Of a stretch of DNA of 64,000 nt, positions 14,565-58,700 are shown one piece after another. Position 1 is the stretch's first letter; each line of letters opens with the position of its first letter. Below the pieces are notes generated by a model. The model saw nothing but the letters and a program-made list of their open reading frames with translations, did not search any database and had not been told where the DNA came from. The DNA lies in assembly GCA_903938815.1 (NCBI GenBank), contig CAJAES010000027.1, positions 1,324-65,323 on the forward strand, read 5' to 3'. Made by a program: the position numbers and the translations under genes. Origin of the DNA: an uncultured beta proteobacterium. GTDB lineage: Bacteria > Pseudomonadota > Gammaproteobacteria > Burkholderiales > Burkholderiaceae_C.

Positions 14565-14773
14565 CTCCACAGTCGATGAACGCCCTGCAGCGCGTGTAAG
14601 GTCTTGGAGGCATCGAAGCCTGGCAGAAGTGTCGGCGCATCAACCCTCGGTGCGGCGAGTTCATTTCACCCGCAATGTGCCGCCGATCGGCTTCGGCCAG
14701 CTGCACCCCGGCCAAGCCTGATCGAGTACTCGACCTGATGACATCTTGATACAACTCATGGTCAGATCCGGTC

Positions 14774-15910
<1,137 letters not shown>

Positions 15911-20153: not shown

Positions 20154-20241
20154 TGGCGGAAGCGGTGAGATTCGAACTCACGGGCCCTTGCGAGCCGCCG
20201 GTTTTCAAGACCGGTGCAATCGACCACTCTGCCACGCTTCC
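20154..20241 (-). tRNA. tRNA-Ser (anticodon UGA), class II with long variable arm, encoded CCA
   Basis: Minus strand reads GGAAGCGTGGCAGAGTGGTCGATTGCACCGGTCTTGAAAACCGGCGGCTCGCAAGGGCCCGTGAGTTCGAATCTCACCGCTTCCGCCA. It has a 7-bp acceptor stem, anticodon loop CTTGAAA and a T-loop GTTCGAATC. Confidence 0.9.
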
Positions 20242-43008: not shown

Positions 43009-44016
43009 TTGAAGCTCTTTCGTCCCATCCGGCGGCGGGCCTTCGGCACCGCCTTGCTCAACCGCAGCCTGACGCTGCTGGCGCGGCAGGCGCGTGCCTT
43101 CAAGCGTGCGCTGAAGCCTGCAGTGTCCCGGCCGCATCGGTCCCCGGCTGTGGCCGGCAAGGGCTGGACCCAGGGCGTAGCCTCGGGCGCGGCCGGTTCG
43201 CGTCGCTACTGGCTGTACTGCCCTCCGGGCGTGGCCGCGCAAGAGCGCCTGCCGCTGATGGTGATGCTGCACGGTTGCCGCCAGGATGCCGCCGCGTTCG
43301 CGGCGAGCACGGGCATGAATCGCGTCGCCCTGCGCGAACGCTTCCTGGTGCTCTACCCCGAGCAGGATCTCTCCGCCAATGCACAGGGCTGCTGGAACTG
43401 GTTCGAGACCGACTCGGGCCGCGGCTTCGGCGAGGCTGAACTGATCCTGGGCGCCATCGATCAGGTGTGCGCCAGACAACCCGTCGACCCACAGCGCGTG
43501 GCGATCTCCGGCCTCTCGGCAGGCGCCAGCATGGCTGCATTGCTGGTCACGCGGCACCCGGCCCGATTCCAGGCGCTGGTGATGCACTCGGGCATCCCGC
43601 CCGGAACGGCGCACTCCACGATGTCGGCCCTGGGCGCCATGCAGCACCACCATGCCACGCGTCCGCTGGCCGTGACATCGGCCGTCATGGCGGCAAGCTG
43701 GCCGGCCCTGCTGGTCATTCACGGGCAGGCCGACCGGGTGGTGTCCCCCCGTTACGGGCAGGCCTCGGCCGACCTGTGGGCTGCGGCAGCAGGGGCCAGC
43801 CCGGCCGCGGCTCGCAGGCTGCAGCGGGGCCGGCGCCACGCGATGTCCATCACGGATTTCAAGCATGTCGGGCGCACGGTCGCCACGCTCGTGGCCGTTG
43901 ACAAGCTGGGCCACGCCTGGAGCGGTGGCGCCGACCGGCAGCCCTTCGCCGATGCGGCGGGCCCCGATGCATCGCGCATGGCATGGTCCTTTGCCGCGAA
44001 ACAGTTTCTGCCGTGA
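43009..44016 (+). CDS. PHB depolymerase family esterase
   Basis: TTG start. Motifs LPLMVMLHGCRQDA, CWNWF and nucleophile elbow GLSAGASMA are typical of the esterase/PHB depolymerase family. Confidence 0.8.
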   Translation: MKLFRPIRRRAFGTALLNRSLTLLARQARAFKRALKPAVSRPHRSPAVAGKGWTQGVASGAAGSRRYWLYCPPGVAAQERLPLMVMLHGCRQDAAAFAASTGMNRVALRERFLVLYPEQDLSANAQGCWNWFETDSGRGFGEAELILGAIDQVCARQPVDPQRVAISGLSAGASMAALLVTRHPARFQALVMHSGIPPGTAHSTMSALGAMQHHHATRPLAVTSAVMAASWPALLVIHGQADRVVSPRYGQASADLWAAAAGASPAAARRLQRGRRHAMSITDFKHVGRTVATLVAVDKLGHAWSGGADRQPFADAAGPDASRMAWSFAAKQFLP

Positions 44017-44783
44017 CAGCCGATCCAACCATCCCGACCGCTCCGACCGCTCCGACCGCATGCAGCGCATGCCCGTTGCGCAGCCTGCCGCTGTTCCTGG
44101 ACCACACCGACGAGGAACTGGAACTGGTGCAGTCGCTCAAGCGCGGCGTGCAGAGTCTGGGCCCGCTGGAGACCCTGATCCATGAGGGACAGACCGATGC
44201 ACCGCTGTACACGCTGCTCGAGGGCTGGGCGTTCCGCTACAAGACCCTGAGCGACGGCCGGCGCCAGATCCTGAGCTTCCTGCTGGCCGGCGACTTCATC
44301 GGTGTGCAGCAGAAGATGGGCGACGCCGCGGCACATGGCGTCGACACGCTGACGCCGGCGGTGTTCTGCATGTTCCAGCGCAACGCGCTGTGGGAACTGC
44401 ATCGCCGCTCTCCGACCATGGGCTTCAACGTGACCTGGCTCACCGCGCACGAGGAGTCGATGGTGGACGACACGCTGCTCTCGGTCGGCCGCCGCAGCGC
44501 CGAGGAACGCATCGCGATGATGCTGATCCTGCTGTTCAAGCGCGCTGCGGCGCTGCAGGCCGATGCAGGCGCGGGCGGCGTTCCGTTCCCGCTCACGCAG
44601 CAGCACATCGCCGACGGCCTGGGGCTGTCGCTCGTCCACACCAACAAGACCTTGCGCAAGCTGGAGCGGCGCGGCCTGCACCAGATATCGCAGGGCCGCC
44701 TGCATATGCGCGACGTGAAGGCGCTCGCGCGCCTGGCGGACCTGTGGGGCGACGGTCGGCCGCCGCAGCGCCCCCTGGTGTAG
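44013..44783 (+). CDS. Crp/Fnr family transcriptional regulator
   Basis: Track ORF 43983..44783. GTG 44013 overlaps the upstream TGA. It has a cNMP-binding-like barrel and the HTH QQHIADGLGLSLVHTNKTLRKLERRGL. The N-terminus carries CSAC. Confidence 0.8.
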   Translation: MTADPTIPTAPTAPTACSACPLRSLPLFLDHTDEELELVQSLKRGVQSLGPLETLIHEGQTDAPLYTLLEGWAFRYKTLSDGRRQILSFLLAGDFIGVQQKMGDAAAHGVDTLTPAVFCMFQRNALWELHRRSPTMGFNVTWLTAHEESMVDDTLLSVGRRSAEERIAMMLILLFKRAAALQADAGAGGVPFPLTQQHIADGLGLSLVHTNKTLRKLERRGLHQISQGRLHMRDVKALARLADLWGDGRPPQRPLV

Positions 44784-44844
44784 CGCTGCAACGGGATGTC
44801 TTTGTACACAGGGGCCGGCATCCCGCGCTCCTACATTGCGGCCG

Positions 44845-45552
44845 ATGCCCGCAATCCATGCACTTGAAATCCGCCTCGAAGGCAACCGCCTTCTGTCCGC
44901 ATTGCCGGATGCCGACTGGTCACGCCTGCTGCCCGACCTGGAGTGGGTGCAACTGACGCACGGCGAGACCCTCTACGAGGCTGGCGCCCCACTGCGCCAG
45001 GTGCACTTCCCGGTGACCGCGAATGTCTCGCTGGTGTCGTCGATGCGCGACGGCTCCTCCGCCGAGGTGGCGGTGGTGGGTCGCGAGGGCGTGGTCGGGT
45101 TGAGCGCCTGCCTGGGCGCCGGCATCGCGCACACCAGCGCCGTGGGGCAAGGGGCCGGCCATGCCTGGCGCATGGGGGTTGGCGCCATGAACCGGCACGT
45201 CGGGCAATCAATGCCTCTGCTCCAGGGCGTGCTCGGCTACACGCAGGCACTGCTCGCGCACATGGCGCAGACCTCCGCCTGCAATCGCCATCACGGACTC
45301 GACCAGCAACTCTGCCGATGGCTGCTGCTGCACCTCGACAGGCAATCGCACAACGAGATGCACGCGACGCAGGAGCGCATTGCGCGGTTGCTCGGCGTGC
45401 GCCGCGAAGGGGTCACGGGCGGTGCGGCGCGGCTGCGAGATGCAGGCCTGATCCGCTATGCCCGGGGCCGGATCTCGATCCTCGACCGGCAGGGCCTCGA
45501 AGCGCGCAGCTGCGAGTGCTATGCCGTCGTGCGCGACGCCCACATGGCCTGA
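44845..45552 (+). CDS. Crp-like transcriptional regulator (paralogue of 51316..52026)
   Basis: ATG 44845 (track TTG 44836). NRLLSALPDADW...VSLVSSMRDGSSAEVAVVGREGVVG...CNRHHGLDQQLCRWLL...LGVRREGVT... Confidence 0.8.
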   Translation: MPAIHALEIRLEGNRLLSALPDADWSRLLPDLEWVQLTHGETLYEAGAPLRQVHFPVTANVSLVSSMRDGSSAEVAVVGREGVVGLSACLGAGIAHTSAVGQGAGHAWRMGVGAMNRHVGQSMPLLQGVLGYTQALLAHMAQTSACNRHHGLDQQLCRWLLLHLDRQSHNEMHATQERIARLLGVRREGVTGGAARLRDAGLIRYARGRISILDRQGLEARSCECYAVVRDAHMA

Positions 45553-45732
45553 AGCGTGCTCAGCCTGCGCTGCACGGGCGCTTGCGGCGCACCGCGCAGG
45601 TGGACTGTGCACTGGCGGTGTGCGAGCGCAATGGTTCCCAGTCGTACGCTGCCGAACAGACCTCCCACCCCGCCGGGCCGCATCCTCGGGGATACCGGTT
45701 TCCCCGTCCCATCACTGCCAGAAAGTCTCCCC

Positions 45733-46167
45733 ATGAACTACGAAGAACGCGATCCTCACGGCATGTACAAGTCCGCCGATGCAGGCCCCGATGTGCGCCG
45801 CGGCCCCGGCCCGCACCTCATGGGCGCCGACACGCTTCTCGGCAACGACGTCTACAACAGGCAGTCGGAAGACCTCGGCGACATCAGTGAGATCATGCTC
45901 GACATGCGCAGCGGGCGCGTCAGCTATGCGGTGCTGTCCTTCGGTGGGTTCCTGGGCATGGGCGACAAGCTCTTCGCCGTGCCGTGGGCTGCGCTGAAGC
46001 TCGACACCGAGAACAAGCGCTTCGTCCTCGATGTCACGAAGGAGCGTCTCGAAACGGCGCCCGGCTTCGACAAGAACCATTGGCCCGACATGGCCGATGC
46101 CGTCTGGCAGAAGGACATCCACGCCTACTACGGCACGAAACCTGAACTCGATACGCCCCGCCTTTGA
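45733..46167 (+). CDS. PRC-barrel domain protein
   Basis: ATG 45733 in track ORF 45556..46167. LLGNDVYNRQSEDLGDISEIMLDMRSGRVSYAVLSFGGFLGMGDKLFAVPW is a typical PRC-barrel core. Confidence 0.8.
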   Translation: MNYEERDPHGMYKSADAGPDVRRGPGPHLMGADTLLGNDVYNRQSEDLGDISEIMLDMRSGRVSYAVLSFGGFLGMGDKLFAVPWAALKLDTENKRFVLDVTKERLETAPGFDKNHWPDMADAVWQKDIHAYYGTKPELDTPRL

Positions 46168-46187
46168 GCCTGGGCAGAAAGAACGGC

Positions 46188-47000
46188 ATGCTGATTCGCG
46201 TCGGTTTTGAAATGGTCTACCAGTGTCCGGCTCCCACGCCGATGATCCTGGCGCTCAACATCCACTACTCGCGCGCTTCAGACCTCGTGCGTCCGGACCA
46301 TCTGGTCACGATCCCGGCGGTGCCCGTCACGGCCTACCGGGATCTCTTCGGCAACTGGTGCAGCCGGATCGTGGCGCCCCAGGGTCGCTTCGTGATCAGC
46401 ACTGACGCCGTCGTGCAGGATTCCGGGCTCACCGACGTCATTGCCACCTACGCCGAAGAGGTTCCGGTGGAGCAGTTGCCCGAGTCGACGCTGGTCTATC
46501 TGCTCGGCAGCCGCTACTGCGAGACCGACCTGCTGTCGGACGTGGCCTGGCAACAGTTCGGCAACGGCCCCAGGGGCTGGGCGCGCGTGCAGGCCATCTG
46601 CGATTTCGTGCACCAGCGCATCCGCTTCAATTACGCGCACGCGCGGCGCACCCGTACCGCGTGGGAGGCCTTCAACGAAGGGCAGGGCGTGTGCCGCGAC
46701 TATGCGCATCTCGCCATCGCGCTGTGCCGCTGCATGAACATTCCCGCCCGCTACTGCACCGGCTATCTCGGTGACATGGGCACCGAGCCGCCCTACGGCC
46801 CGATGGATTTCGCCGCGTGGTTCGAAGTCTGGCTGGGCGACCGCTGGTATGCCTTCGATGCGCGCAACAACACGCCGCGCATCGGCCGCGTCCTGCTCGC
46901 GCGCGGCCGCGACGCCTGCGACGTCGCGCTGGCCAGCACCTTCGGCCCCAACACGCTGGAATCGTTCAAGGTCTGGACGGACGAAGTGATGTCCGCATGA
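46188..47000 (+). CDS. Transglutaminase-like family protein (Bact_transglu_N plus Cys-protease-fold core)
   Basis: MLIRVGFEMVYQC N-domain. Catalytic region GQGVCRDYAHLAIALCR...FAAWFEVWLGDRWYAFDARNN (Cys/His/Asp). Confidence 0.85.
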   Translation: MLIRVGFEMVYQCPAPTPMILALNIHYSRASDLVRPDHLVTIPAVPVTAYRDLFGNWCSRIVAPQGRFVISTDAVVQDSGLTDVIATYAEEVPVEQLPESTLVYLLGSRYCETDLLSDVAWQQFGNGPRGWARVQAICDFVHQRIRFNYAHARRTRTAWEAFNEGQGVCRDYAHLAIALCRCMNIPARYCTGYLGDMGTEPPYGPMDFAAWFEVWLGDRWYAFDARNNTPRIGRVLLARGRDACDVALASTFGPNTLESFKVWTDEVMSA

Positions 47001-47719
47001 CCTATTGCGTGGGTGTCAAGCTGGACGAAGGCCTCATCTTCGCCAGTGATTCGCGCACGCACGCGGGCGTCGACAACTACGCCAAGTTCCGCAAGATGAC
47101 GGTCTTCGAACGCAGCGGCGACCGCGTCATCGTGCTGCTGAGTTCAGGCGGCCTGGCCGCAACGCAGGCGGTCATCAACGTGCTGAGCCGGCGTGCGGAA
47201 GCCGAGGGCCCGAACCTGTGGAGCGTGGGTTCGATGTTCGACGTCGCCATCCTGGTGTCGGACGCCCTGCGCGACATAGAACGCCGCGACGGCCCGTTCA
47301 TGGAATCGGGCGGGCTGAAGTTCAACGCCTCTTTCATTCTCGGCGGGCAGATCGCCGGCGAAGGCATGCGCCTGTTCCGGCTCTACGCAGAGGGCAACTT
47401 CATCGAGGCCGGCATCGACACGCCATTCCTGCAGACGGGCGAGGCCAAGTACGGCAAGCCCATCCTCGACCTCGCCGTGAGCGCCACCGCCACGCTGGAA
47501 GACGCCACCAAGTGCGTGCTGGTGTCCTTCGACTCCACGATGATCAGCAACCTATCCGTGGGCATGCCGATCGACCTGCTCTGCTACGCGCGCGACACCA
47601 TGCAAGTGACGATGCAGCGCCGCTTCGACCAGGGCGACGACTACTTCGAGGCGCTCACCCGGCAATGGCTCGAAGGCACGCGGCGTGTGTTCCATGACCT
47701 GCCTGCGCTGACTTGGTGA
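46997..47719 (+). CDS. Proteasome-type peptidase Anbu (ancestral beta subunit family)
   Basis: ATGA overlap with the transglutaminase gene. N-terminus MTYCVGVKLDEGLIFASDSRTHAG, with Thr2 as the Ntn nucleophile. About 240 aa, typical of Anbu. Confidence 0.8.
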   Translation: MTYCVGVKLDEGLIFASDSRTHAGVDNYAKFRKMTVFERSGDRVIVLLSSGGLAATQAVINVLSRRAEAEGPNLWSVGSMFDVAILVSDALRDIERRDGPFMESGGLKFNASFILGGQIAGEGMRLFRLYAEGNFIEAGIDTPFLQTGEAKYGKPILDLAVSATATLEDATKCVLVSFDSTMISNLSVGMPIDLLCYARDTMQVTMQRRFDQGDDYFEALTRQWLEGTRRVFHDLPALTW

Positions 47720-47738
47720 GATGTTCGCCGGACAGCGT

Positions 47739-47752
47739 TTGTTCCAGATCAA
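47739..47752. promoter_or_regulatory. FNR/CRP-type dyad, 9/10 match to TTGAT-N4-ATCAA
   Basis: TTGTT-ccag-ATCAA lies in the AT-rich spacer about 145 nt upstream of ATG 47897. TATAGT (47831-47836) and TACTAT (47860-47865) are possible -10 boxes downstream. Confidence 0.3.
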
Positions 47753-47896
47753 TACAAGCACATATTCCTTTGAAGATGTCTTGTGCTGCGACTGTTCGGT
47801 GACGCACATACGCCCCCTGCTGCGCCGCAATATAGTGCTCTCAAATGCGTACCGAGGCGTACTATCGAAACCTCCGATCCCCCTGGTCAGCGCGAT

Positions 47897-48331
47897 ATGC
47901 CTGTTGCTTGGCAAGACATCAGCCGCTGGCCCTTGCTGCTGAACCTCCGCTTGCCGAACGGGGCGAGCGTCGAGCAGATTGCCGACGCCGTCACCGACAT
48001 CTGGATTGAGATCGACCGGGTCTTGCATCCGATCGTCGGGCACCGCGGTGTGGCCGCCCTGTACCACCGCAGCCTGAAGGTATCGGCTGCAGGTCACCCC
48101 TGGCTGAGCCCGGCGAACCCCGGCCTGCTCGCCGAAATCAATCGTGATGCGCTGCGTGCTGCGCTTGTCGGTCAGACCCCGGACGACGCAAGAGCGGGTG
48201 CGCTCGATCAACTCGAAGCCTTTTGCACTCTGCTGGCCAGCCTGGTCGGCGCTTCACTCACGGCCCGGCTGCTTGCGCCGGTGTGGGCACCATCCGAGGG
48301 CGAGCCGCCCGCGCAGGAAGTTTTTTCATGA
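47897..48331 (+). CDS. Hypothetical 144-aa protein, first gene of the KaiC-like module
   Basis: ATG 47897 in track ORF 47783..48331. GC3 rises sharply only after this ATG. Its stop overlaps the next start (ATGA). No family recognised, and no TM or signal peptide. Confidence 0.55.
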   Translation: MPVAWQDISRWPLLLNLRLPNGASVEQIADAVTDIWIEIDRVLHPIVGHRGVAALYHRSLKVSAAGHPWLSPANPGLLAEINRDALRAALVGQTPDDARAGALDQLEAFCTLLASLVGASLTARLLAPVWAPSEGEPPAQEVFS

Positions 48332-49797
48332 CGAGCAAAGCCACCATCAACCTCCTGGCCACCAAGGTGCCAGGCTTGGATGAGGTGCTCGGCGGCGGCC
48401 TGCCCGAGTTTTCGTTCAACCTCATCGCCGGCCAGCCAGGCTGCGGCAAGACCACGCTGTCGCACCAGATCATGTTCGCGCTGGCCACGCCGGAGCGCCC
48501 TGCGATCTACTTCACGGTGCTGGGCGAGCCGCCGCTGAAGATGCTGCGCTATCAGCAGCAGTTCGATTTCTTTGATACCGAAGCCCTGCAAAGGCGCGTG
48601 CGCTTCGTCAGCTTGTCCGAGGACGCCATGACCGGCGACCTGGAGCGCGTGCTCCAGCGCATCGCGGCAGAAGTGGCCGAACACAGCCCCGGCCTGGTGT
48701 TCGTGGACTCCTTCCGTTCAGTGGTCTTTGCCAGCGAAGGCGGCAGCGCGCACGCGCGGCTGCAACTCTTCGTCCAGCAGCTCGGCATGCTCATGACCAG
48801 CTGGCAGGCCACCACCTTTCTCATCGGCGAGTACTTCGACGAGACCGACACCAACCCGGTGTTCACCGTCGCCGATGGTCTGATCTGGCTGCGCCAGAGC
48901 GTTCAGCGCAACTCCATGGTGCGCAAGCTCGAAATCATGAAGATGCGCGGTCAGGCCACATTGCCGGGCCTGCACACCTTCCGCATCGACCGGTCGGGCG
49001 TGCGTGTCTTCGCGCCGGCGACTGCAGTGGCCGTGGCTGCGCACCACGCGACGAACACGGCGGCACCGTCGGTCGACCGTGCGAATCTCGGCGTGCCTGA
49101 ACTCGACGCGATGCTGGGTGGCGGGCTGCCGCGCGGCTACTCGCTGCTGCTGGCCGGGCCTTCGGGCTCTGGCAAGAGCATCCTGGCGGCCAGCTTCCTG
49201 GCAGAAGGAAACCGACGCGGCGAGATCGGTGTGCTGGCTGCGTTCGAGCAGCACCCCGACGTCGCGCGCAACCCCTTGCTCGCCGCTCTGATCGAGAACG
49301 GTGCGGTCAGCGTGATCGACAGCCACGAGGCGGATCTCTCCATCGACGAGATCGTGCTGCTGATCCTGACCGAGGTGGCGCGGCGAAACGCCACCCGCGT
49401 GGTGATCGACTCGCTCAGCGGATTCGAGCTGGCGCTGGCGCCCACCTTCCGCGCAGACTTCCGCGAATCCCTGCTCGGCCTGGTGACCGCCTTGTCGCGC
49501 TCCGGCGTCACGGTGGTGATGACTTCGGAGCTCGAGGACCGCTACACCGATCTTCGCTTCAGCCCCTACGGCGCCGCCTTTCTCACCGACGCGATCATCG
49601 TGCAGCGCTACATCGAGGTCGACAGCCGGCTCCTGCGCGTGATGGCGGTCGTGAAGGTCAGGGCCAGTGCGCATTCCGACGAACTGCGCCTGTACAGCAT
49701 CGACGACAAGGGAGTGCGAATGGGCGAGCGCCTGCAGGGCCAGGAAGGACTCCTCGGCGGCAGCCCGAAGCGCGTGCGGCCCCGAGACCCGATGTGA
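48328..49797 (+). CDS. KaiC-family double RecA-fold ATPase (489 aa)
   Basis: Two domains, each with Walker A (GQPGCGKTT, GPSGSGKS) and Walker B (LVFVDSF, RVVIDSL). The C-terminal segment LTDAIIVQRYIEVDSRLLRVMAVVKVRASAHSDELRLYSIDDKG aligns without gaps with S. elongatus KaiC ITDTIILLQYVEIRGEMSRAINVFKMRGSWHDKAIREFMISDKG. Confidence 0.85.
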   Translation: MTSKATINLLATKVPGLDEVLGGGLPEFSFNLIAGQPGCGKTTLSHQIMFALATPERPAIYFTVLGEPPLKMLRYQQQFDFFDTEALQRRVRFVSLSEDAMTGDLERVLQRIAAEVAEHSPGLVFVDSFRSVVFASEGGSAHARLQLFVQQLGMLMTSWQATTFLIGEYFDETDTNPVFTVADGLIWLRQSVQRNSMVRKLEIMKMRGQATLPGLHTFRIDRSGVRVFAPATAVAVAAHHATNTAAPSVDRANLGVPELDAMLGGGLPRGYSLLLAGPSGSGKSILAASFLAEGNRRGEIGVLAAFEQHPDVARNPLLAALIENGAVSVIDSHEADLSIDEIVLLILTEVARRNATRVVIDSLSGFELALAPTFRADFRESLLGLVTALSRSGVTVVMTSELEDRYTDLRFSPYGAAFLTDAIIVQRYIEVDSRLLRVMAVVKVRASAHSDELRLYSIDDKGVRMGERLQGQEGLLGGSPKRVRPRDPM

Positions 49798-51323
49798 TGT
49801 CCGAGAAGCCCGGATCCGAAGGCAGCAAGGCCCTCGACCCCAGCGCCGAAGCTGCTGCGCTGGGCATCCAGATCGAGGCCATGCGGGCCTCTCTGGTGCG
49901 CCTGCTGCAAGAGGTGGTGACAGCCGAGGCCAGGGTGGTCACGAGCAATTCCGCCGCCCAGATGGCGGAAGTCAACGGCGTGCTGGTCGAGCGGGCTCTG
50001 GCACTTCAGGAAAGCGCTCAGGCCGGTGGCCTGGACGTGCTGACCCGGTTGCCGAATCGCCTGACCCTGCGCGACCGCTTCGGCCAGGCCGTGGCCCAGT
50101 CGCGGCGAAACGGTGATCGTCTGGCGCTGCTGTTCATCGATCTCGATGACTTCAAGCCGCTGAACGATCTTCACGGCCACCCGTTCGGCGACCGCGTGCT
50201 GCAGTTGGTGGCGCAGCGTCTGCTGACCGCTGTACGCGAGGTCGATACCGTCAGCCGCCACGGCGGCGACGAGTTCCTGATCCTGCTGGTGGGCCTGAAC
50301 CAGCCACAGGATGCACAGGCGGTGGCCGACAAGCTGGCCGCCGCAGTTGCCGAGCCGGCCAGCATCGACGGCCACGCGCTTTCGCTCTCGGTGAGCGTGG
50401 GCATTGCCGTTCATCCGGACGACGGCGAGGAACTCGATGCCCTGGTCGCACGGGCTGACGCTGCCATGTACGCGGCCAAGTACCGGCGCGGGCGCCACGG
50501 CGCTGGCGTTCCCGACTCCCTGCGCACGCAGGCTCAGTTGCGCGAGGCCAACGAGCGCCTGATCGTCGCTGCACTCAGCGCCCAGGAACTGCTGGAGGCT
50601 GCCGAGAAGGCGCGCAAGCGGCAGGAGGTGCTCATGGCTGCCGTGGCCGAGGAACTGCGCAACCCGACCGCGCCCGTCAGCATCGCCAGCACGATGGTCG
50701 GCCACCTGCCAGGCGACGAACCGCTTCTGCCGCGCGTGCAGGCGGTGGTGGAAAAGCGCCTGACGCATCTCTCGCGCTTGATCGGCAATCTGGTGGAAAC
50801 CTCGTCGGCATCTGTCGCGCCGCTGGAGCTCGCACACGAGTGGGTGGACATGGCGCCCATCATCGACGGCGCCGCTGCCGCCTACCGCCCGGTGCTCGAC
50901 CAGCGCGGCCAGCGGTTCGAGCTGCGCCGGCCCGCCGGGCCGCTGGGCGTCAGCGGCGACGCAGACCGGCTCGGGCAGATCGTCACGAACCTCCTCGACA
51001 ACGCCAGCCAGCACACGCACGACGGCGGCCGCATCAGCCTGGTGGTTGCCGTGGAAGGCGAGAGCCTCCAGATGACCGTGGCCGACGACGGCTACGGCAT
51101 CGGCCCGCAGACCTTGCCCTACATCTTCGAGCCTTTCGTGCAGGACATCCATGCCCTGGGGGCCGGCGGCCCCGTTCCCGGCATCGGGCTCACGGTGGTG
51201 CGGGCACTGGTGCGCGCCCATGGCGGCAACCTGAGCGCGCACAGCCCCGGCCTGCGCCGCGGCAGCCAGTTTCTCGTGACACTCCCGCTCGTCGGCAAAC
51301 CCGACGCTCGTCAAGATGACTGA
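49797..51323 (+). CDS. Cytoplasmic GGDEF diguanylate cyclase fused to a histidine-kinase-like DHp/HATPase_c core with a degenerate H-box
   Basis: The ATG at 49797 overlaps the KaiC-like TGA. Coiled-coil N-terminus. GGDEF domain (RHGGDEF, I-site REVD). H-box position reads VAEELRNPTAPV. N-box NLLDNASQHT, G1 DDGYGI, G2 GIGLTV. Confidence 0.85.
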   Translation: MSEKPGSEGSKALDPSAEAAALGIQIEAMRASLVRLLQEVVTAEARVVTSNSAAQMAEVNGVLVERALALQESAQAGGLDVLTRLPNRLTLRDRFGQAVAQSRRNGDRLALLFIDLDDFKPLNDLHGHPFGDRVLQLVAQRLLTAVREVDTVSRHGGDEFLILLVGLNQPQDAQAVADKLAAAVAEPASIDGHALSLSVSVGIAVHPDDGEELDALVARADAAMYAAKYRRGRHGAGVPDSLRTQAQLREANERLIVAALSAQELLEAAEKARKRQEVLMAAVAEELRNPTAPVSIASTMVGHLPGDEPLLPRVQAVVEKRLTHLSRLIGNLVETSSASVAPLELAHEWVDMAPIIDGAAAAYRPVLDQRGQRFELRRPAGPLGVSGDADRLGQIVTNLLDNASQHTHDGGRISLVVAVEGESLQMTVADDGYGIGPQTLPYIFEPFVQDIHALGAGGPVPGIGLTVVRALVRAHGGNLSAHSPGLRRGSQFLVTLPLVGKPDARQDD

Positions 51324-52026
51324 CGCGCTGCGCAATGGCCTGCTTGCGGCGTTGCCGGATTCCGACTGGGTACGCTGGGAGCCTCTGCTGGAGCCGATGG
51401 CGCTGCCGCTCGGGCACGTGCTGTACGAGTCCGGCGTGCAACTGGCCTATGCCTGCTTTCCCACCACGGCGATCGTCTCCCTGATGTACGTCACCGAGAA
51501 CGGCGACTCTTCAGGCATCGCTCTGGTGGGCCGCGAAGGCATGGTGGGCGTGCCGCTCATCATGGGCGGCGGCTCCACCCCGGGCCGCGCCGTCGTGCAG
51601 AGCGCGGGGCAGGGCTACAGAATCTCGGCATCTGCGTTGCGCCAGGAATTCGCACGGGGCGGGCCGGTGATGCAGCTGCTGCTGCGCTACACGCAGGCGC
51701 TGATCGCGCAGATGGCGCAGATCGCGGTGTGCAACCGCCACCATTCCGTGGACCAGCAGCTGTGCCGCTGGTTGCTGCTCAACCTGGACCGGTTGCCTGG
51801 CGACGACATCGTGGCCACCCAGGAACTCATCGCGCACATGCTGGGCGTGCGCCGCGAGGGCGTGACCGAAGCAGCGCTGTCGCTGCAGCGCTCCGGCCTC
51901 ATCAGCTATCGGCGCGGCCATGTCCAGGTGCTGGACAGGCAGGGGCTGGAACGTCGCAGCTGCGAGTGCCATGCCGTCATCAAGGACGAATACGACCGGC
52001 TGTTGCCGCAGCCCGTGCCGGTGTGA
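51316..52026 (+). CDS. Crp-like transcriptional regulator (paralogue of 44845..45552)
   Basis: 8-nt overlap with the upstream gene. NGLLAALPDSDW...VSLMYVTENGDSSGIALVGREGMVG...CNRHHSVDQQLCRWLL...LGVRREGVT... Confidence 0.85.
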   Translation: MTDALRNGLLAALPDSDWVRWEPLLEPMALPLGHVLYESGVQLAYACFPTTAIVSLMYVTENGDSSGIALVGREGMVGVPLIMGGGSTPGRAVVQSAGQGYRISASALRQEFARGGPVMQLLLRYTQALIAQMAQIAVCNRHHSVDQQLCRWLLLNLDRLPGDDIVATQELIAHMLGVRREGVTEAALSLQRSGLISYRRGHVQVLDRQGLERRSCECHAVIKDEYDRLLPQPVPV

Positions 52027-52037
52027 GCCGGCACGGG
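52012..52037. terminator. 10-bp perfect hairpin at a convergent gene junction (possible bidirectional terminator, no U-tract)
   Basis: CCCGTGCCGG-tgtgag-CCGGCACGGG spans the stop codon of the Crp-like gene, 9 nt from the csbD-like stop. Confidence 0.4.
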
Positions 52038-52045
52038 CGGGTCGA

Positions 52046-52279
52046 TCACTTCTGCTTGTCGGACTTCTCGAGCCAGGTGTCGCTGGCGCTGCGTTCCCAC
52101 GAGGCCAGCTGCTTCTCGGCCTCTTCCTTGGCGACGCCGTAGCGCTCCTGGATCTTGCCGGCCAGCTGGTCGCGGCGGCCCGCGACCACGTCGAGGTCAT
52201 CGTCCGTCAGCTTGCCCCATTGCTCACGGGCCTTGCCTTGCACCTGTTTCCAGTTGCCTTGGATCTGTTCCCAGTTCAT
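52046..52279 (-). CDS. CsbD family stress protein
   Basis: MNWEQIQGNWKQVQGKAREQWGKLTDDDLDVVAGRRDQLAGKIQERYG is the canonical CsbD motif. Confidence 0.9.
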   Translation of the reverse strand: MNWEQIQGNWKQVQGKAREQWGKLTDDDLDVVAGRRDQLAGKIQERYGVAKEEAEKQLASWERSASDTWLEKSDKQK

Positions 52280-52298
52280 GTGATCTCCTTGCGGTCGC

Positions 52299-52613
52299 TC
52301 AGGGCCGGATTGCGATTTCGTTCTTGACCTGCTTCACGCCCTTGACCTTCCAGGTCAGGGTTTCGGCGGTGGCCTTCTCGGTCGAGCCCTTGGCAAAGCC
52401 GGAGAGCATCACGGTGCCGTTGAGCGTCTCGACGCTGATCGCGGCAGCATCGACCATCTTGTTCTCGACGAAGCTGCCCTTGACGGCCGTGGTGATGGCT
52501 GCGTCATCGACGTACGCGCCCACGGTTTCCTGGCCGCGCATGACGGCGCAGCCCGCGGTGGTGGCGAGGACGAGCGCGGCGAAGACCGGCAGCATTGCTT
52601 TTCTGATGTTCAT
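52299..52613 (-). CDS. BON domain lipoprotein (OsmY-like)
   Basis: ATG 52613 with AGGAG SD. Lipobox TTAGC. BON core DDAAITTAVKGSF...ISVETLNGTVMLSGFA. Confidence 0.85.
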   Translation of the reverse strand: MNIRKAMLPVFAALVLATTAGCAVMRGQETVGAYVDDAAITTAVKGSFVENKMVDAAAISVETLNGTVMLSGFAKGSTEKATAETLTWKVKGVKQVKNEIAIRP

Positions 52614-52760
52614 GGAGTGGCTCCTTGGTGTTGACAGCCTCACTCTAGGCAGCGGGCCGTGCGCTGTCCGTGCGCCGGCGCACCCATCGGGGTGCACACT
52701 GCTCACACGGGTGTCGGCCCGTGTTCAGGCGGTGCGTACCGTCGGAGCCAGCCACGCACC

Positions 52761-55700
52761 TCAGCGGCGCTCGGCAGGCACGCGCACCGTGAAGTGGCTG
52801 TCCGGGCCCAGCACGGTCCAGTCCAGCGCCTCGCCGACGGCCAGCGGGCGGCTGTCGGGTGCGTCCATCGCGTCGCCCGTGCCATCGCCCTGCACGAAGC
52901 AGAAGTGCATTCGGCGGCCATCGCGCCTGAGGGTCAGTTCGGCGCGCGGCCAGTGCGTCGGAAGGCAGGGCTCGAAGTGCAGGCTGCGCACCGACAGCTT
53001 CAGGCCGAAGACCGACTCCACCGCCGCACGGTGCAGCCAGCCCGCCGCGCCCGTGTACCAGCTCCAGCCGCCACGGCCGACATGGGGCGCCTGTGTGCAG
53101 ATGTCGCCTGCCATCACGTAGGGCTCCAGCCCGTAGACCCTGCCATGCACCGGGTGCGCCGTGCGATGGGCCGGGCTCAGGAAGCCGAACCAGCGGTAGA
53201 CGGCGTCCCGATCGCCCGGTTTCGCGTGCGGCCCGGCGGCCAGGCGTGCCCGCGCCATCAGCGCCCAGACGGCGGCGTGGGCGTACTGGCCGCCGTTCTC
53301 GCGCACGCCGGCGGGGTAGGCCTGGATGTAACCCGCGGCAGGTTCGGCTCGGTTCAGCGGTGGGTCCAGGAGGCGCAGCAGGCCCCCCGTGGGGTCCACC
53401 AGCAGCGCTTCCGCGGCCTGCATGGCCGCGCGCTGGCGCGCCGGCGGCGCCACATCCGACAGAACCGACCAGGCCTGGGCGATGAGGTCGATGCGAGCCT
53501 CCGTCGATGCCCGTGAGCCGAGTGCCGTGCCGTCGTCGAAGAAGGCGCGCCGGTACCACTGGCCGTCCCAGCCCTCGGACTCCAGCGCGGCACGCCAGCC
53601 GACGGCCGAGGCCTCCCAGCGGTCGGCCCTGTCCGCGTCGCCGCGCGCGCGGGCCAGGGGTGCGAACGCGGCCACCACGCTGCACAGGAACCACCCCAGC
53701 CACACGGATTCGCCGCGGCCTTCATGGCCCACCCGGTTCATGCCGTCGTTCCAGTCGCCGCTGCCCATCAGCGGCAGGCCGTGCTGGCCGACGCGCAGGC
53801 TGTGATCGATGGCCCGCGCCGCGTGTTCGTAGACAGAGGCGACATCGGTGCCGGGCACAGGCGTCTCGTAGATGTCCTCTGCGCCGGCCGGCACCTCGGC
53901 GCCTTCCAGGAAGGGCACGCGTTCGTCGAGCAGAGAGGCGTCGCCCGTGGCCTCCTGGTGCTGTGCCACGGCGAGTGGAAGCCACAGCAGGTCGTCGCTC
54001 ACGTGGGTGCGCACCCCGGCCCCCTGAGGTGCATGCCACCAGTGCTGCACGTCGCCGGCCGCGAACTGTCGTGACGCGCACAGGACGATCTGCGCGCGCA
54101 GCATGGCCGGCGCCGCCCAGGCCAGCGACATCGTGTCCTGCAACTGGTCCCGGAAGCCCGTGGCGCCCCCGGCCTGGTAGAAGCCGGCCTTGGCCCACAG
54201 GCGGCAGGCCACGGCCTGGTAGAGCAGCCAGCGGTTGACGAGCACGTCGAACAGCGGGTCGGGTGTCTTCACGGTCGTGGCGCCCAGCAGGGCGTCCCAG
54301 CGCGCGCGTGCCGTGGCGGTGCGTTCGGCGGGTGGCAACGCCAGCGCCCGGGCGGCCAGCGCCAGGGCGTCGGCAGCGGTGTCGGCGTGCCCGAGCAGGA
54401 AGACACGGCGGGCGCTCGCCCCGGGCGCCAGCGACACGCGTGTCGCGATGGCGGCGCAGGGGTCCAGACCGCCGCCGAAGCGCCGCCCCAGGTGGTCGGG
54501 CAGCACCAGCCTGCCGCGGGTGTCGAAGAACTCCCTGCGGTCGGTGGTCCAGTCGTCGGCGGCCTCCGACAGCGCCAGGAATGCCGTGGCGCCGCCGAAG
54601 CCCGCGCCTCGCTCGTCCTGGGTTGCCATGAGTACCCGGGCGCGGCCTACCGCAGCCTGCGCCGTGCGAACGGTGGCACGGTCGCCGCGCCGCGTGCCCA
54701 TCATCCATTCGGCCATGCCGGCCAGCCGCAGCGACCGCGTCCGCGTGCCGTGGTTGACCATCTCCACGCTGACATGCTTGACGGCCGCATCGGCATCGAC
54801 GCACCAGGCCACGCGCACCGCCAGATCGCCATGGCGATGTTCGATGCTGCTCTCGCCCTGGCCGTGGCGCACCGTGTAGGTCGCGTCCGCATCGCCCCAG
54901 GCCGAGGGCGCGAGGCTCCAGGCATCACGTGTGCGCTCATCCTGCAGCAGAAACCATTCCGCCGGCGTGTCGGCAACAGGGTCGTTGGACCAGGCCGTGA
55001 TCTGGTGCATGCGGCTGTTGTGGGCCCAGCTCATGCCCGAGCCCGACTCAGACAGCAGCGCGCCGAAGCCCGGCTGCGCCAGCACATTGACCCAGGGGCG
55101 AGCCGGGCGCGTGCGCGCATCGACGGCGAACACGAAGTCGCCCGTCTCCGCATCGAACCGGCCGGCCGGGAGCGCCTGCCTGGCGTCGGGCGCGGGGCGT
55201 GTGCCGACCGGCGTGCCGGGGACATCCTGTCGCCTGTCGAACGCCGCATCGTGCGCCGACGCAAGATCCTGCACGTGCCGGGACAGAGGGCGCCCGTCGG
55301 CCATCAGGTGGACCCGGGCAAGCGCCTGCAGCGTGGCCGAATCCTCGAGGGTCAACTCGTCGGCACGCAGGCGGTACAGGCCGCCACCCGGGTCCGCCAT
55401 GCCAGCGAGAGCCTGCTGCAGCGGTGACTGGTAGGACGGAGGCTCCGCGTTCACGATGATCAGATCGCAGGCGACTCCGCCCCATGACCAGATCTGCAAT
55501 GCCTGCGAAAGCGTGCGCAGCAGGCCGGTGTCCTGGGTGACGCGCACCGTGACGAGCAGGATGGGCCTGTCCCCCGAGATTCCGAAGCGCCAAAGCAGGC
55601 GCCTGTCGCAGGCGCCTCGGGCTGAAAACGCCGGCGGCGCTGTTGAAACTGCAGCCGGGACTGCAACCTGAACGGCAACCGGAACGGCGTCCGCATCCTC

Positions 55701-58700
55701 CGGCGCCGCACCCGGCCGTACGAGCGTCTGCATCAGCAGCGTGCTGAGCGTCTGTACCGCCGCGAAGGTGTCGGGGCCGATGTGAAGGCCGCGCAGCCGG
55801 ATGTCGGCGAGGGTTGCCGACATCAGCGAGGCGCGCAGCACCGGGCCGGGCTGGCGGTACTTGTCGATCACGGCGGTGAGCACGGCGGCGTCGTCGGACG
55901 CCGCGGTCGCCCAGGTCAGGACAGCCTTGCCGCCGGGGGCCAGGCGCAGGGTGGCGGCCAGCGCGGACATCGGGTCCAGGCCCGTGTCCAGCACCACGCC
56001 GGAGGGGCCGTTGTGGACCGGAGGCTCGTCCAGTTCGGCCAGGGGGTGCTGCATGCCGCGATGGCGGCCGCGCCAGCGCGCGCGGTCGGTCTGGACGCGC
56101 ACGTCGGTCAGCGGCACGTCGCAGCCTGCAATGAAGTGCGCCGCCCACAGCGCGGGTTCACCCGCCAGCCGGGGCCGCCGCTCGAAGACCAGCGCGCGCG
56201 GCCCCTCGCGCCAGCGAGCCTGCAGGAACAGATTCGAGAAAGCCGGATGGGCTTCGTCGGCGCGGGCATCGGAAAGCGTGGGCTCGAAGGCCGAGACGAG
56301 CGTCAGCGTCAGCGGGTGGCTTCCGAGGTTGCGCAGCTCGACCTGCCGGAACTCGATGTCGTCCTCCGGGCTCACCCAGACGGTGAGCTGGGCGGCCAGA
56401 TCGGGCCAGCGGGCATCGAACGCCACGCGGTCGGCATGGAAGACGCTGGTGTAGGCCGCATTCGCGTCGGGCGCGGGATGCTGCGTCAGCGACACCAGCG
56501 GCGCCGACGCATGGCGGCGCATGAACACGAAGCTGCCGTGCTCGTCCCGCAGGGCATCGTCGCGCGAGCGGCTCAGGCCGCGACCGCGCCAGCGGCTCTC
56601 GCCGGCGCCGTTCGGGCGCAGCGTGAGGCTGTAGTGCCCGTTCGACAGCACGTGCGTGGGCGACAGCGCATGGGCGCCGGGCGACACCTCGCGGCGCAGC
56701 ACTGGTGTGCGAAGCGGCAGTGCCGATGCAGGTGGTTCGCCCCAGGAAGGTTGGCGCCGCGCGATCTGCCGCGGCGGGCGTTCGTGCAACAGCGGCAGCA
56801 AGGCCTCGATGGGTGCGGCGGTCATGCCCCAGCGGCGCGGCGCGCCGTCGAGCAGCACCTGTGCCAGCGCCACCAGGCTCATGCCCTGGTGGTGCGCCAT
56901 GAAGGTGCCGACGCGCGTCGAGCTCTGCCCAGGCGCCTGGCGCCCGGGCGAGTAGTCGATGGCCTCGATGAAGCCCAGCGTGCCGCGTGCGTCCAGTTTC
57001 TCCAGCTTCGCCAGGTTGGCCAGCACGGCAGCGGGGGCCAGTTCGATGGCCATGACCGTGGCGTAGGGCGCCACCACCAGTTCATCGGCCGGCGTGCGGC
57101 GCAGCGCCATGCCCGGCACCCCCTGCGGGCCGTACTGGTAGGCGAGGGTGTGGTCCCGCCCGGCGTGCGCCGACTCCGAGACACCCCAGGGCACGCCCTG
57201 CGCGGCGCCGAAAGCCTGCTGCTCCGCGACGGCCGCCCGGCAGGCCTGGTCGAGCACGCTGCCGGGGGGTTCGTCGATCACCAGTCCGGGCATCAGGTAC
57301 TCGAACATCGAGCCCGACCACGAGCGCAGGCCCGCTGTCGCGCCCACGGCCACTGATGGGCGTCCCAGCGCCGCCCAGTGGCGCACGGGCACGTCGCCCT
57401 TGGCGATGGCGATCAGGCTGGTCAGCCGGGATTCCGACGCCAGCAGGTCGTAGCAGGCCGTGTCCAGCGTCTGGTCGCCCAGGCGGTAGCCGATGTGCAG
57501 CAGGTGACGCCTGCGGTGGTACAGGAAGCCGAACTCCGGCGCCCAGGCCAGCGTCTCGCAACGCAGCGCCAGCGCGTGCAGGCGCTCCGTGGTGCCGGGG
57601 CTTTCGTCGACGCCCGTCTCGCGGCATGCCGCCGCCACAGCGAGCAGGTGCCCCGACAGGTTGCCGCTGTCGACCGTGGAGACATACATCGGCTGCAGCG
57701 GCTGCAGGGTCTGCGTGTCGTACCAGTTCAGGAAGTGCCCGCGGTGGCGGGCCAGCCTGTCCAGCGTGCCCAGCGTGGCTTCGAGCCGCGTGGCCAGCGC
57801 CTTGGGGCCGATCCAGCCGAACCGGCGGGCACAGGCCGCGGACAGCAGGTACATGCCGATGTTGGTGGGCGAGGTGCGGTGGGCGATGGCCTCGTGCGGC
57901 ATGAACTGCAGGTTGTCGGGGGGCAGGTGGTTGTCGTCGGCGCCTACGCAGCGATCGAACAGCCCCCAGGTGTCGTGCGCCAGGCGCTCCAGCCAGAGCC
58001 GGTCCGTCACGGACAGCGGCCGCTCGGCCGGCAGCGGCCGGCTCGCCCACCAGCTCCACAGCGGCGCGCTCGCCCACAGCAGGCCGAGCGCCACCACGAG
58101 CGCAGGCGCAGGCGTGCCGGTGGCCAGCAGGCCGACCGTCGCCAGCAGCGCGAGCAGCGGCGTGGTGGCCTGCCGGCGCAGCAGCGCCTGCAGCGGACTG
58201 CGTCCGCGCGCGCCCGCGGCGGCGGCCGTGGTCCAGGCCAGCAGGTGGCGCCGGCTCACCACGAGCCGGTACAGCGTGCGGCCGATGGCATCGACGGCGG
58301 CCAGCGCCTGGTGCCCGAGCATCGCGAGGTGCCACAGGCCGGTGCCCAGCGCACGTGACAGATCGATCAGCCCCTGGCGGTAGAAGTAGCGTGCCGCCAC
58401 GTCCAGCCGGTCGGGCAGCAGGCCGGCGAGCGCGCCCATCAGAGGCCCGGCCGCGTGCGCGCCCAGGACCAGCATCAGCATGGCCAGCGGCGAGCCGCCC
58501 AGACCCGCCAGCGCCACCAGCAGGAGCACCAGGGACGCGGGCGCCAGCAGTGAGCGGCGCAGGTTGTCGAGCATCTTCCAGCGGTCCAGACGTCGCAGGC
58601 CACGCCCGACCAGGAAGGGCAGCAGCTGCCAGTCGCCGCGCATCCAGCGGTGCGCGCGCGATGCCGCCACTTCGGCGTCGGCCGGGGCGTCTTCCATCAG

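Follow-up and report, generated by a model that had tools for sequence, protein, structure and literature searches.

A four-gene operon with a KaiC-like ATPase and a candidate cyclic di-GMP output in an uncultured beta proteobacterium

Introduction

What KaiC homologs do outside the cyanobacteria is a long-open question, approached so far through gene-context hypotheses and a few phenotypes only. In cyanobacteria it is established that the state of the KaiC-type ATPase is read by a kinase, SasA. The question is raised again by a 64,000-nucleotide (nt) stretch of DNA from an uncultured beta proteobacterium of the Burkholderiales (assembly GCA_903938815.1, contig CAJAES010000027.1, positions 1,324 to 65,323), the whole of which is here called the window. 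Within it, four adjacent genes (g1 to g4; Table 1) encode a small helical protein, a KaiC-like ATPase, a protein that combines a GGDEF domain with a kinase-like core, and a regulator of the CRP/FNR family. What kind of signal could an ATPase of this type hand on through such partners?

The answer proposed here, for which we judge the prospects to be evenly balanced, is that the locus is one operon, a derived and clade-specific version of a widespread cassette made of g1, a KaiC-like ATPase and a coiled-coil kinase-type output protein, and that it works by a cyclic di-GMP (c-di-GMP) output mechanism.

Results

Four overlapping genes are kept together across relatives

Four open reading frames (ORFs) with three stop/start overlaps were found on the forward strand, just where the preliminary description had placed them. 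The stop codon of g1 and the start codon of g2 share a common ATGA (48328-48331), a TGATG at 49795-49799 joins g2 to g3, whose start is the ATG at 49797 (a GTG at 49794 being the alternative), and g3 and g4 overlap by 8 nt.

The conservation of this arrangement was followed in related genomes. A word-indexed search gave 78 clusters of g1, and scans of species-representative genomes and metagenomes, together with exact look-ups, yielded the 80 loci used for the synteny count, to which 10 further loci were added afterwards. A separate scan with a strict peptide pattern from a 9-sequence g1 alignment recovered 3 loci only and missed that of Quisquiliibacterium, where the motif reads GVAALLNR. The proteins of the window were mapped by tblastn on the first 80 loci, and only loci with enough sequence were counted. 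Gene g1 was followed by g2 in 69 of 70 loci, g2 by g3 in 24 of 24, and g3 by g4 in 14 of 19. The gene-neighbourhood comparison proposed earlier thus revealed that the four genes are syntenic in related genomes, and these statistics exclude chance adjacency, which counts against a set of neighbours without any functional link (a view taken up below together with a defence role). The 4-nt overlap between g1 and g2 was kept in 70 of 71 loci, which is an unusually strict predicted translational coupling. The flanks vary, but the order of all four genes was kept in L004-6, L008-10 and L084.

Two cultured carriers were identified, Quisquiliibacterium transsilvanicum with the full four-gene module (L084) and Caenimonas soli with a three-gene core (L001, L003). 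In C. soli S4 this core (g1, the KaiC-like gene and a dead-GGDEF kinase gene) is present twice, on different contigs and with unrelated flanks. The sole exception to the g1-g2 order among the 70 loci was L081, a short contig on which a g3-like GGDEF gene comes immediately after a weak g1-like ORF (35% identity), without a KaiC-like gene in between (412-1358). At another locus, L010 (GCA_022841915.1, 1-3732), the g1-g4 module is immediately preceded by a canonical kaiC-kaiB-kaiB-PAS/HisKA/HATPase/REC cluster, from which a divergent g4-like Crp gene separates it.

The spacer upstream of g1 is the probable promoter region of the operon. It had been described as the only clearly AT-rich spacer of the window; in fact it is the stretch with the second-lowest GC content, that at 326-550 being lower (0.47). 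The low-GC stretches other than this spacer lie at 326-550 and 14650-14850 (GC 0.47-0.55 in 150-nt windows). The spacer contains a -10-like box, CGTACTAT; the pattern TACYAT, usually as GTACCAT, occupied the same place relative to g1 in 31 of the 65 loci left after dereplication, where shuffled sequences lead one to expect 1.2, and CGTACYAT has a single occurrence in the whole window. With this box at a fixed position upstream of it, g1 would open a unit that has a promoter-like element to itself. At the other end, a perfect inverted repeat without a T-tract is the probable terminator and end of the operon. No riboswitch, of the c-di-GMP type or any other, was found when Rfam was run over the whole window. 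On the strength of the overlaps, the positionally conserved -10-like box, the terminal hairpin and a synteny that extends over dozens of loci, g1 to g4 constitute one predicted operon, and the earlier claim of a single transcription and translation unit is maintained.

The small partner g1

The product of g1 had at first been taken for an orphan, but it belongs to a large family. A search with its profile hidden Markov model against 1.84 billion representatives gave 3,291 clusters at E<=1e-3, or 382 with the stricter limit of E<=1e-30 (clusters counted at 50% identity), and the best 150 clusters were all stand-alone proteins of about 117-240 amino acids (aa). The AlphaFold2 model of g1 was confident and all-helical, with a predicted local distance difference test (pLDDT) score of 79.5 and a predicted template modelling score of 0.74. 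No match was found for g1 in Pfam, NCBIfam or PADLOC, and other members of the family had no convincing match in Pfam. In the PDB, neither a fold match (best Foldseek E 2.4) nor a sequence-profile match was obtained. As fold, sequence-profile and Pfam matches were all absent, the possibility that g1 is a KaiA-like or KaiB-like protein was ruled out.

Even distant relatives of g1 have the same neighbour. In L086 and L089, the next gene encodes a KaiC-like protein that along its whole length is 70-72% identical to g2, and in L088 the first 65 residues of such a protein (80% identical) are all that follows g1 before the contig ends.

A KaiC-like ATPase outside the clock family

The product of g2 was matched twice by the KaiC domain PF06745 (215 bits), in agreement with its first description as a KaiC-family double ATPase, and its closest relatives in the PDB were KaiC proteins (E 1e-50 to 1e-33). 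Both domains have a conserved Walker A motif and a Walker B-like motif. However, g2 scored below both cut-offs for KaiC equivalogs (NF006799 / TIGR02655), with 209.7 vs 408 bits and 130.6 vs 546 bits. The positions equivalent to the KaiC phosphosites S431 and T432 were Ala and Phe in all 30 full-length members of the g2 family, and the EE of KaiC is replaced by LGE in domain 1, with FEQ in domain 2. Therefore, as the phosphosites are missing, g2 would not be a phospho-oscillator; it is, as judged from its sequence, a KaiC-like ATPase but not a strict member of the KaiC clock family. Within the window, tblastn with two KaiB sequences found no kaiB (best E 0.9), and no KaiA or KaiB domain was detected in the ORFs scanned between 36026 and 63905, so that the reported absence of kaiA and kaiB near g2 holds for the window.

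These data bear on the reading of the module as a KaiC-based hourglass or circadian timer with c-di-GMP as its rhythmic output. Such a timer would agree with the two KaiC domains of g2 and its best PDB relatives, with the canonical kaiC-kaiB-kaiB-kinase cluster directly upstream of the module in L010, and with the kaiC-kinase operon of Ramlibacter, which is co-transcribed and for which an hourglass was proposed (PMC3164672). It is nevertheless quite improbable, in view of the Ala/Phe pair in 30 of 30 family members, of scores far under the KaiC equivalog cut-offs, of the failure to find kaiA or kaiB in the window, and of the argument made in the same 2011 paper that homologs without both phosphosites are probably unable to sustain cyclic timing (PMC3164672). 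A circadian clock proper was rejected because of the Ala and Phe at the phosphosite-equivalent positions.

KaiC-like ATPases are also known from conflict systems (PMC5512222), and weak PADLOC matches of g2 to mad8 and IetA were obtained at the level of the P-loop. In PADLOC-DB 2.0, though, the matches were restricted to the Walker A region of g2, g1, g3 and g4 had no match, the neighbours are housekeeping stress and envelope genes conserved across genomes, and signs of mobile elements were absent. A defence-system reading was rejected, as its matches were of P-loop length only and concerned g2 alone; an anti-phage defence or conflict system built around the ATPase, or a group of adjacent genes without functional link, is extremely improbable.

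g3 and the series of output proteins

In Pfam searches, g3 matched the GGDEF domain with 149 bits and HATPase_c with 78 bits, and no HisKA, transmembrane, PAS, GAF or REC segment was detected in it. Domain scans and alignments agree with the first description of g3 as a sensorless protein that combines a coiled coil and an intact GGDEF domain with a kinase-like core, and they show that this core lacks the acceptor His. The DLDDFKPLNDLHGH stretch, with the upstream metal- and GTP-binding residues of the GGDEF domain, is conserved. Throughout the His-less clade the GGDEF motif and the upstream DxD/FK/ND/GH residues were strictly conserved, which argues for retained catalysis.

When the proteins encoded after the KaiC-like gene were compared, four states of the output were found. 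The first is a 357-aa coiled-coil histidine kinase without a GGDEF domain and with the H-box His present (L089). The second has an intact GGDEF domain together with the His (AHELRNP; L066, L067 and L076). In the third, represented by both copies of Caenimonas soli and by a metagenome-assembled genome of Ramlibacter (L001-3), the GGDEF motif is degenerate (GGHEF, GAHEF or GSHEF), DxD is lost, and both RxxD and the His are retained. The fourth is that of the window clade, with intact GGDEF and RxxD and with D, E, G, A or R instead of the His. The N, G1, F and G2 boxes of the ATP-binding domain were conserved in all four. In the variant of L086/L087 (6922-10229), the output protein is a HisKA-HATPase-REC hybrid kinase, with the H-box His present in L086. 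Beside this hybrid kinase lies a convergent GGDEF-HisKA-HATPase gene with GGDEF and His intact and the first N-terminal helix missing.

The kinase of L089 corresponds to g3 minus its GGDEF domain, and its two helices of the 'ANEQLVLAAL' type adjoin each other, whereas in g3 they flank the GGDEF domain. Because these helices are contiguous in L089, it looks as if the GGDEF domain had been inserted into a coiled-coil kinase that was ancestral to g3. The g3 of the window is also some 45-50 residues shorter than most of its relatives (508 aa as compared to about 555-560 aa), and the alignment places the deletions within the first linker helix and within the linker between GGDEF and DHp. The database representative P0079 differs from it by one residue, His for Leu in AALSAQ.

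All the kinase-type partners whose genes come straight after the KaiC-like gene had an N-terminal coiled-coil-like segment in common, and in g3 this segment would be the best candidate docking site for g1/g2. A protein partner as the input of g3, as had been suggested, is plausible, given this common segment and the invariant g1-g2-g3 order. The analogy then drawn with KaiC-SasA fails structurally: residues 1-78 of g3, where a KaiB-like or thioredoxin-like domain was looked for, matched neither KaiB nor any other Pfam family. As g3 has no KaiB-like domain, the analogy is functional at most.

The same series bears on the possibility that g3 is mainly a receptor or scaffold for c-di-GMP or ATP, with nucleotides sensed by its I-site and its ATP-binding domain, or a Ser/Thr kinase that acts on g1 or g2 in the manner of anti-sigma-type kinases. 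The RxxD I-site is kept even where GGDEF is degenerate (L001-3), the ATP-binding boxes are conserved in proteins that have no acceptor His, and there is a weak match to HATPase_c_2 (E 0.0013). That match lies under threshold, however, and the strict conservation of GGDEF and the DxD/FK/ND/GH residues in the whole His-less clade argues the other way, so such a role is improbable for the g3 of the window. In the degenerate variants of Caenimonas and Ramlibacter, the protein is a real kinase for which the GGDEF domain probably serves as receptor.

g4 and the weight of the proposed mechanism

The assignment of g4 to the CRP/FNR family was supported by its C-terminal HTH_Crp_2 domain (50.4 bits, cut-off 27), and the match to cNMP_binding (23.5 bits) remained under the cut-off of 27.5. 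The AlphaFold2 model was uncertain (pLDDT 65, and below 50 for residues 52-93), although as a whole it matched CRP/FNR structures with E of about 1e-8. The g4 orthologs linked to the module are 63-77% identical and better conserved than g1 or g3. They follow g3 in 14 of 14 loci where g3 is His-less, compared to none of 5 loci with a His-bearing g3. Such an association would be expected if the output were now read by a transcription factor in place of a response regulator.

In the mechanism that we propose, g1 and the ATPase g2 would form a complex, whose nucleotide or conformational state would be read by the N-terminal coiled coil of a dimeric g3 and would gate its diguanylate cyclase activity. 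Because it is the cyclase activity that g1/g2 would gate, the output would be c-di-GMP; it looks rewired, with c-di-GMP in the place once held by His-Asp phosphotransfer. The RxxD site of g3 would provide product feedback, and its ATP-binding domain, with no His left to phosphorylate, would be kept as a regulatory or scaffolding element. Finally, g4 would set the expression of the nearby stress and envelope genes (BON, CsbD, PRC-barrel, transglutaminase/proteasome-like and NdvB) and may read c-di-GMP or its own Cys/His site. The step from ATPase to cyclase, which we infer from comparison, has good comparative support and is unproven, and the step from cyclase to Crp is weak and has a credible rival.

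According to this rival, g4 is an input or an independent regulator, which senses a redox, metal or Fe-S signal and controls both the operon and the stress genes, while c-di-GMP acts on unlinked effectors. We hold it to be possible, though doubtful. Six residues (Cys139, His142, His143, Cys150, Cys216 and Cys218) were invariant in 20 sequences of the g4 subfamily, stand-alone orthologs included, and this suggests that g4 has a sensor site of its own, for a metal, an Fe-S cluster or redox. The set differs from the N-terminal cluster of FNR, and it is not known from Clp or Bcam1349. The rival is further favoured by the paralog 6 kb upstream in the window (52% identical), by a cNMP domain under the Pfam threshold, and by the g4-like genes that lie divergently upstream in L076, L005 and L010. 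It also agrees with orthologs about 70% identical to g4 in genomes without the module, namely Variovorax saccharolyticus and one 5-Mb genome. In both, the gene adjoins a second Crp gene; its other neighbours are receiver genes in Variovorax saccharolyticus and genes for BON, PRC, Usp and YflT in the 5-Mb genome. On the other hand, g4 is co-oriented with g3 and overlaps it or closely follows it in 14 of 14 His-less loci and never follows a His-bearing g3, which points to a functional tie of g4 with the cyclase-only output. Nor could a Crp-type palindromic operator be defined upstream of g1 across the loci, where TCGACA/GCAAAGCG-like strings recur with variable spacing.

The invariant Cys/His set and the orthologs without the module also weigh against the c-di-GMP mechanism as proposed, and so do the following points. 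The g4 subfamily is very large, which speaks against a dedicated c-di-GMP reader. No specific similarity of g4 to Clp was found, the sole PDB sequence match at E<=0.01 being 3dv8, and Clp was not named among the top 50 fold matches of the g4 model. Thus, for the step from c-di-GMP to a Crp-type effector, which the preliminary description had derived from the precedent of other family members, nothing specific was found in support, given the lack of likeness to Clp, the module-free orthologs and the Cys/His residues of g4 itself. In L076, moreover, the module with the g4-like gene divergently upstream is His-bearing, so g4 is not strictly tied to a His-less output. The link of His loss with g4 is restricted to one clade (g2 identity 76-82%), and because the His-less loci form this one clade the association probably reflects a single evolutionary event. 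A consensus scan of 47400-52800 revealed neither a canonical sigma-70 promoter nor a convincing T-tract terminator, what the ATP-binding domain kept in g3 does is not explained by the model, and all coupling steps are deduced from gene order and motifs.

Features of the locus and neighbouring genes

The coordinates of the genes and motifs are collected in Table 1.

Table 1. Genes, motifs and other features of the locus (positions in the window)
Feature	Position	Strand	Description
g1	47897-48331	+	All-helical protein of 144 aa from a family without annotation; always paired with, and upstream of, the KaiC-like gene
g2	48328-49797	+	489-aa KaiC-like double RecA-type ATPase
g3	49797-51323	+	508-aa protein, coiled coil / GGDEF / His-less DHp / HATPase_c; predicted diguanylate cyclase joined to a pseudo-histidine-kinase core
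g4	51316-52026	+	236-aa regulator of the CRP/FNR family
g2 Walker A motifs	48430-48453, 49156-49179	+	GQPGCGKT and GPSGSGKS; conserved in both domains
g2 equivalents of KaiC S431/T432	49561-49581	+	Ala417/Phe418, from alignments to KaiC structures
g3 N-terminal coiled coil and first 'ANEQLVLAAL'-type linker helix	49860-50000	+	Candidate docking region, from alignments
g3 GGDEF domain	50031-50486	+	aa 79-230; PF00990
g3 RxxD I-site	50235-50246	+	REVD, aa 147-150; five residues before the GGDEF motif
g3 GGDEF motif	50262-50276	+	aa 156-160; intact
g3 degenerate H-box	50646-50666	+	AEELRNP; Glu285 at the position of the phospho-acceptor His
g3 HATPase_c domain	50955-51290	+	aa 387-498; N, G1, F and G2 boxes conserved
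g4 motifs	51727-51744, 51754-51771, 51958-51972	+	VCNRHH, QQLCRW and CEC; invariant Cys/His
Intergenic spacer	47720-47896	+	177 nt, GC about 0.53; separates the ATG of g1 from the proteasome-like gene, whose stop is at 47719
-10-like box	47858-47865	+	About 32-39 nt before the g1 start codon; family consensus GTACCAT
Inverted repeat	52011-52021 and 52028-52038		Perfect, 11 bp, loop of 6 nt; extends across the stop codon of g4, where g4 and csbD converge
Crp-family gene	43983-44783	+	
g4 paralog	44836-45552	+	52% identical; about 6 kb upstream
PRC-barrel gene	45556-46167	+	
Transglutaminase-like gene	46164-47000	+	
Proteasome-like protein gene	46817-47719	+	
CsbD gene	52046-52279	-	Converges on the operon
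BON gene	52299-52706	-	Converges on the operon
GH94 cyclic-glucan synthase gene	52761-60938	-	NdvB-like, 2,725 aa; converges on the operon

The stress and envelope surroundings noticed at the outset (CsbD, BON and NdvB) are present and recur in relatives. Among the recurring flanking genes are those for PRC-barrel, transglutaminase-like and proteasome-like proteins, a second or third Crp paralog, BON, CsbD, DUF3309 and NdvB. L009 mirrors the window almost gene for gene, the upstream block at 43983-47719 included, and parts of this block flank the module in L005, L006, L008 and L049. NdvB adjoins the module in L008 and L009, and CsbD with BON in L005, L009 and L061. The Crp subfamily is linked to genes of the BON, PRC, CsbD and Usp type with or without the module, and control of a general-stress-like gene set is therefore a plausible role for it. 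One tRNA gene (20157-20241, reverse strand) was the sole Rfam match in the window.

Discussion

A functional parallel to the proposed mechanism is the KaiC-SasA-RpaA pathway of cyanobacteria, in which the state of a double-domain hexameric ATPase of the KaiC type is read by a dimeric protein of the kinase type and converted into transcription. The differences are considerable. The ATPase g2 has no phosphosites, and neither KaiA nor KaiB was found in the window; g3 would dock, if at all, through its coiled coil and/or through g1 and not through a KaiB-like thioredoxin fold; its acceptor His is missing, and its catalytic output would be that of a GGDEF cyclase; and g4 is of the CRP/FNR type, unlike the OmpR-type regulator of the cyanobacterial pathway.

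Outside cyanobacteria, archaeal KaiC-like ATPases were reportedly proposed as signal-transduction hubs by Makarova et al. in 2017. They resemble the system described here in being linked in the genome to varied signalling outputs and in acting as a switch rather than a clock, but they are mostly single-domain proteins with other partners, without components like g1, GGDEF or Crp. A second parallel concerns g3. In Myxococcus, SgmT is a histidine kinase with a degenerate GGDEF domain that binds c-di-GMP. The Caenimonas and Ramlibacter variants (GGHEF, RxxD and intact His) resemble it, whereas the g3 of the window is its reciprocal, with an active-looking GGDEF domain and a dead kinase; the domain order also differs, the GGDEF domain being N-terminal to the kinase core in g3.

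As for g4, c-di-GMP binders of the CRP/FNR type do exist, such as Bcam1349 of Burkholderia cenocepacia (PMC10519070). Both Bcam1349 and Clp of Xanthomonas belong to the superfamily of g4, and Bcam1349 comes from the same order as the window and regulates genes of the matrix and the envelope according to c-di-GMP (PMC10519070). No specific similarity of sequence or fold between g4 and Clp was found, and c-di-GMP binding by g4 would be a candidate function.

A context like that of the window was described by De Luca et al. in 2011 (PMC3164672). In that paper, kaiC without kaiB, followed by a gene for a kinase or for a GGDEF/EAL protein, is catalogued as a gene context, and homologs of the 'AF' type are placed in a heterogeneous third group with poor phosphosites. 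Co-transcription was demonstrated there for the kaiC-histidine kinase pair Rta_04330/Rta_04340 of Ramlibacter tataouinensis, whose function was still a hypothesis in 2025 (PMC11847603). This pair resembles g2 and g3 in that a betaproteobacterial kaiC homolog without kaiB is followed by a dedicated signalling gene, co-transcribed with it in Ramlibacter; however, Rta_04330 has two phosphorylatable residues and g2 has none. The g1 partner, the fusion of GGDEF with a His-less kinase and the Crp gene are not mentioned in the available part of PMC3164672. A full-text search found no paper on this module, nor on KaiC-like proteins together with c-di-GMP outside cyanobacteria; g1 has no name and so could not be searched for by name. 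The novelty claimed for the module thus stands for its four-gene form, of which no description was found, but not for the general context of kaiC with a kinase or GGDEF gene, described in 2011 (PMC3164672).

The under-appreciated core of the system is the pair of g1 and the KaiC-like gene. This pair may deserve wider attention than the four-gene version. In g1 it includes an obligate, translationally coupled partner with no match in the PDB or Pfam and no mention in the literature found. The output proteins form a natural series, in which the same pair of ATPase and g1 occurs with a kinase, with a kinase plus cyclase, or with a cyclase only, and from which clean biochemical predictions follow. 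The module is also tied to stress and envelope genes, the cyclic-glucan synthase included.

A more far-reaching proposal, tentative and rather unlikely as it stands, is that g1 would be the missing partner of the KaiB-less KaiC homologs and, with a KaiC-like hexamer devoid of phosphosites, would form a new ATP-driven switch or timer, which in thousands of lineages of proteobacteria would control kinase-type outputs through a common coiled coil. In the clade of the window, phosphotransfer would have been replaced by c-di-GMP synthesis, and a CRP/FNR protein with a Cys/His set would have been recruited as the dedicated reader of c-di-GMP, or of c-di-GMP and redox, for a stress and envelope regulon. 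These hypotheses are directly testable, since Quisquiliibacterium transsilvanicum and Caenimonas soli are in culture, and with this locus the function of the KaiB-less KaiC homologs becomes testable in cultured bacteria.

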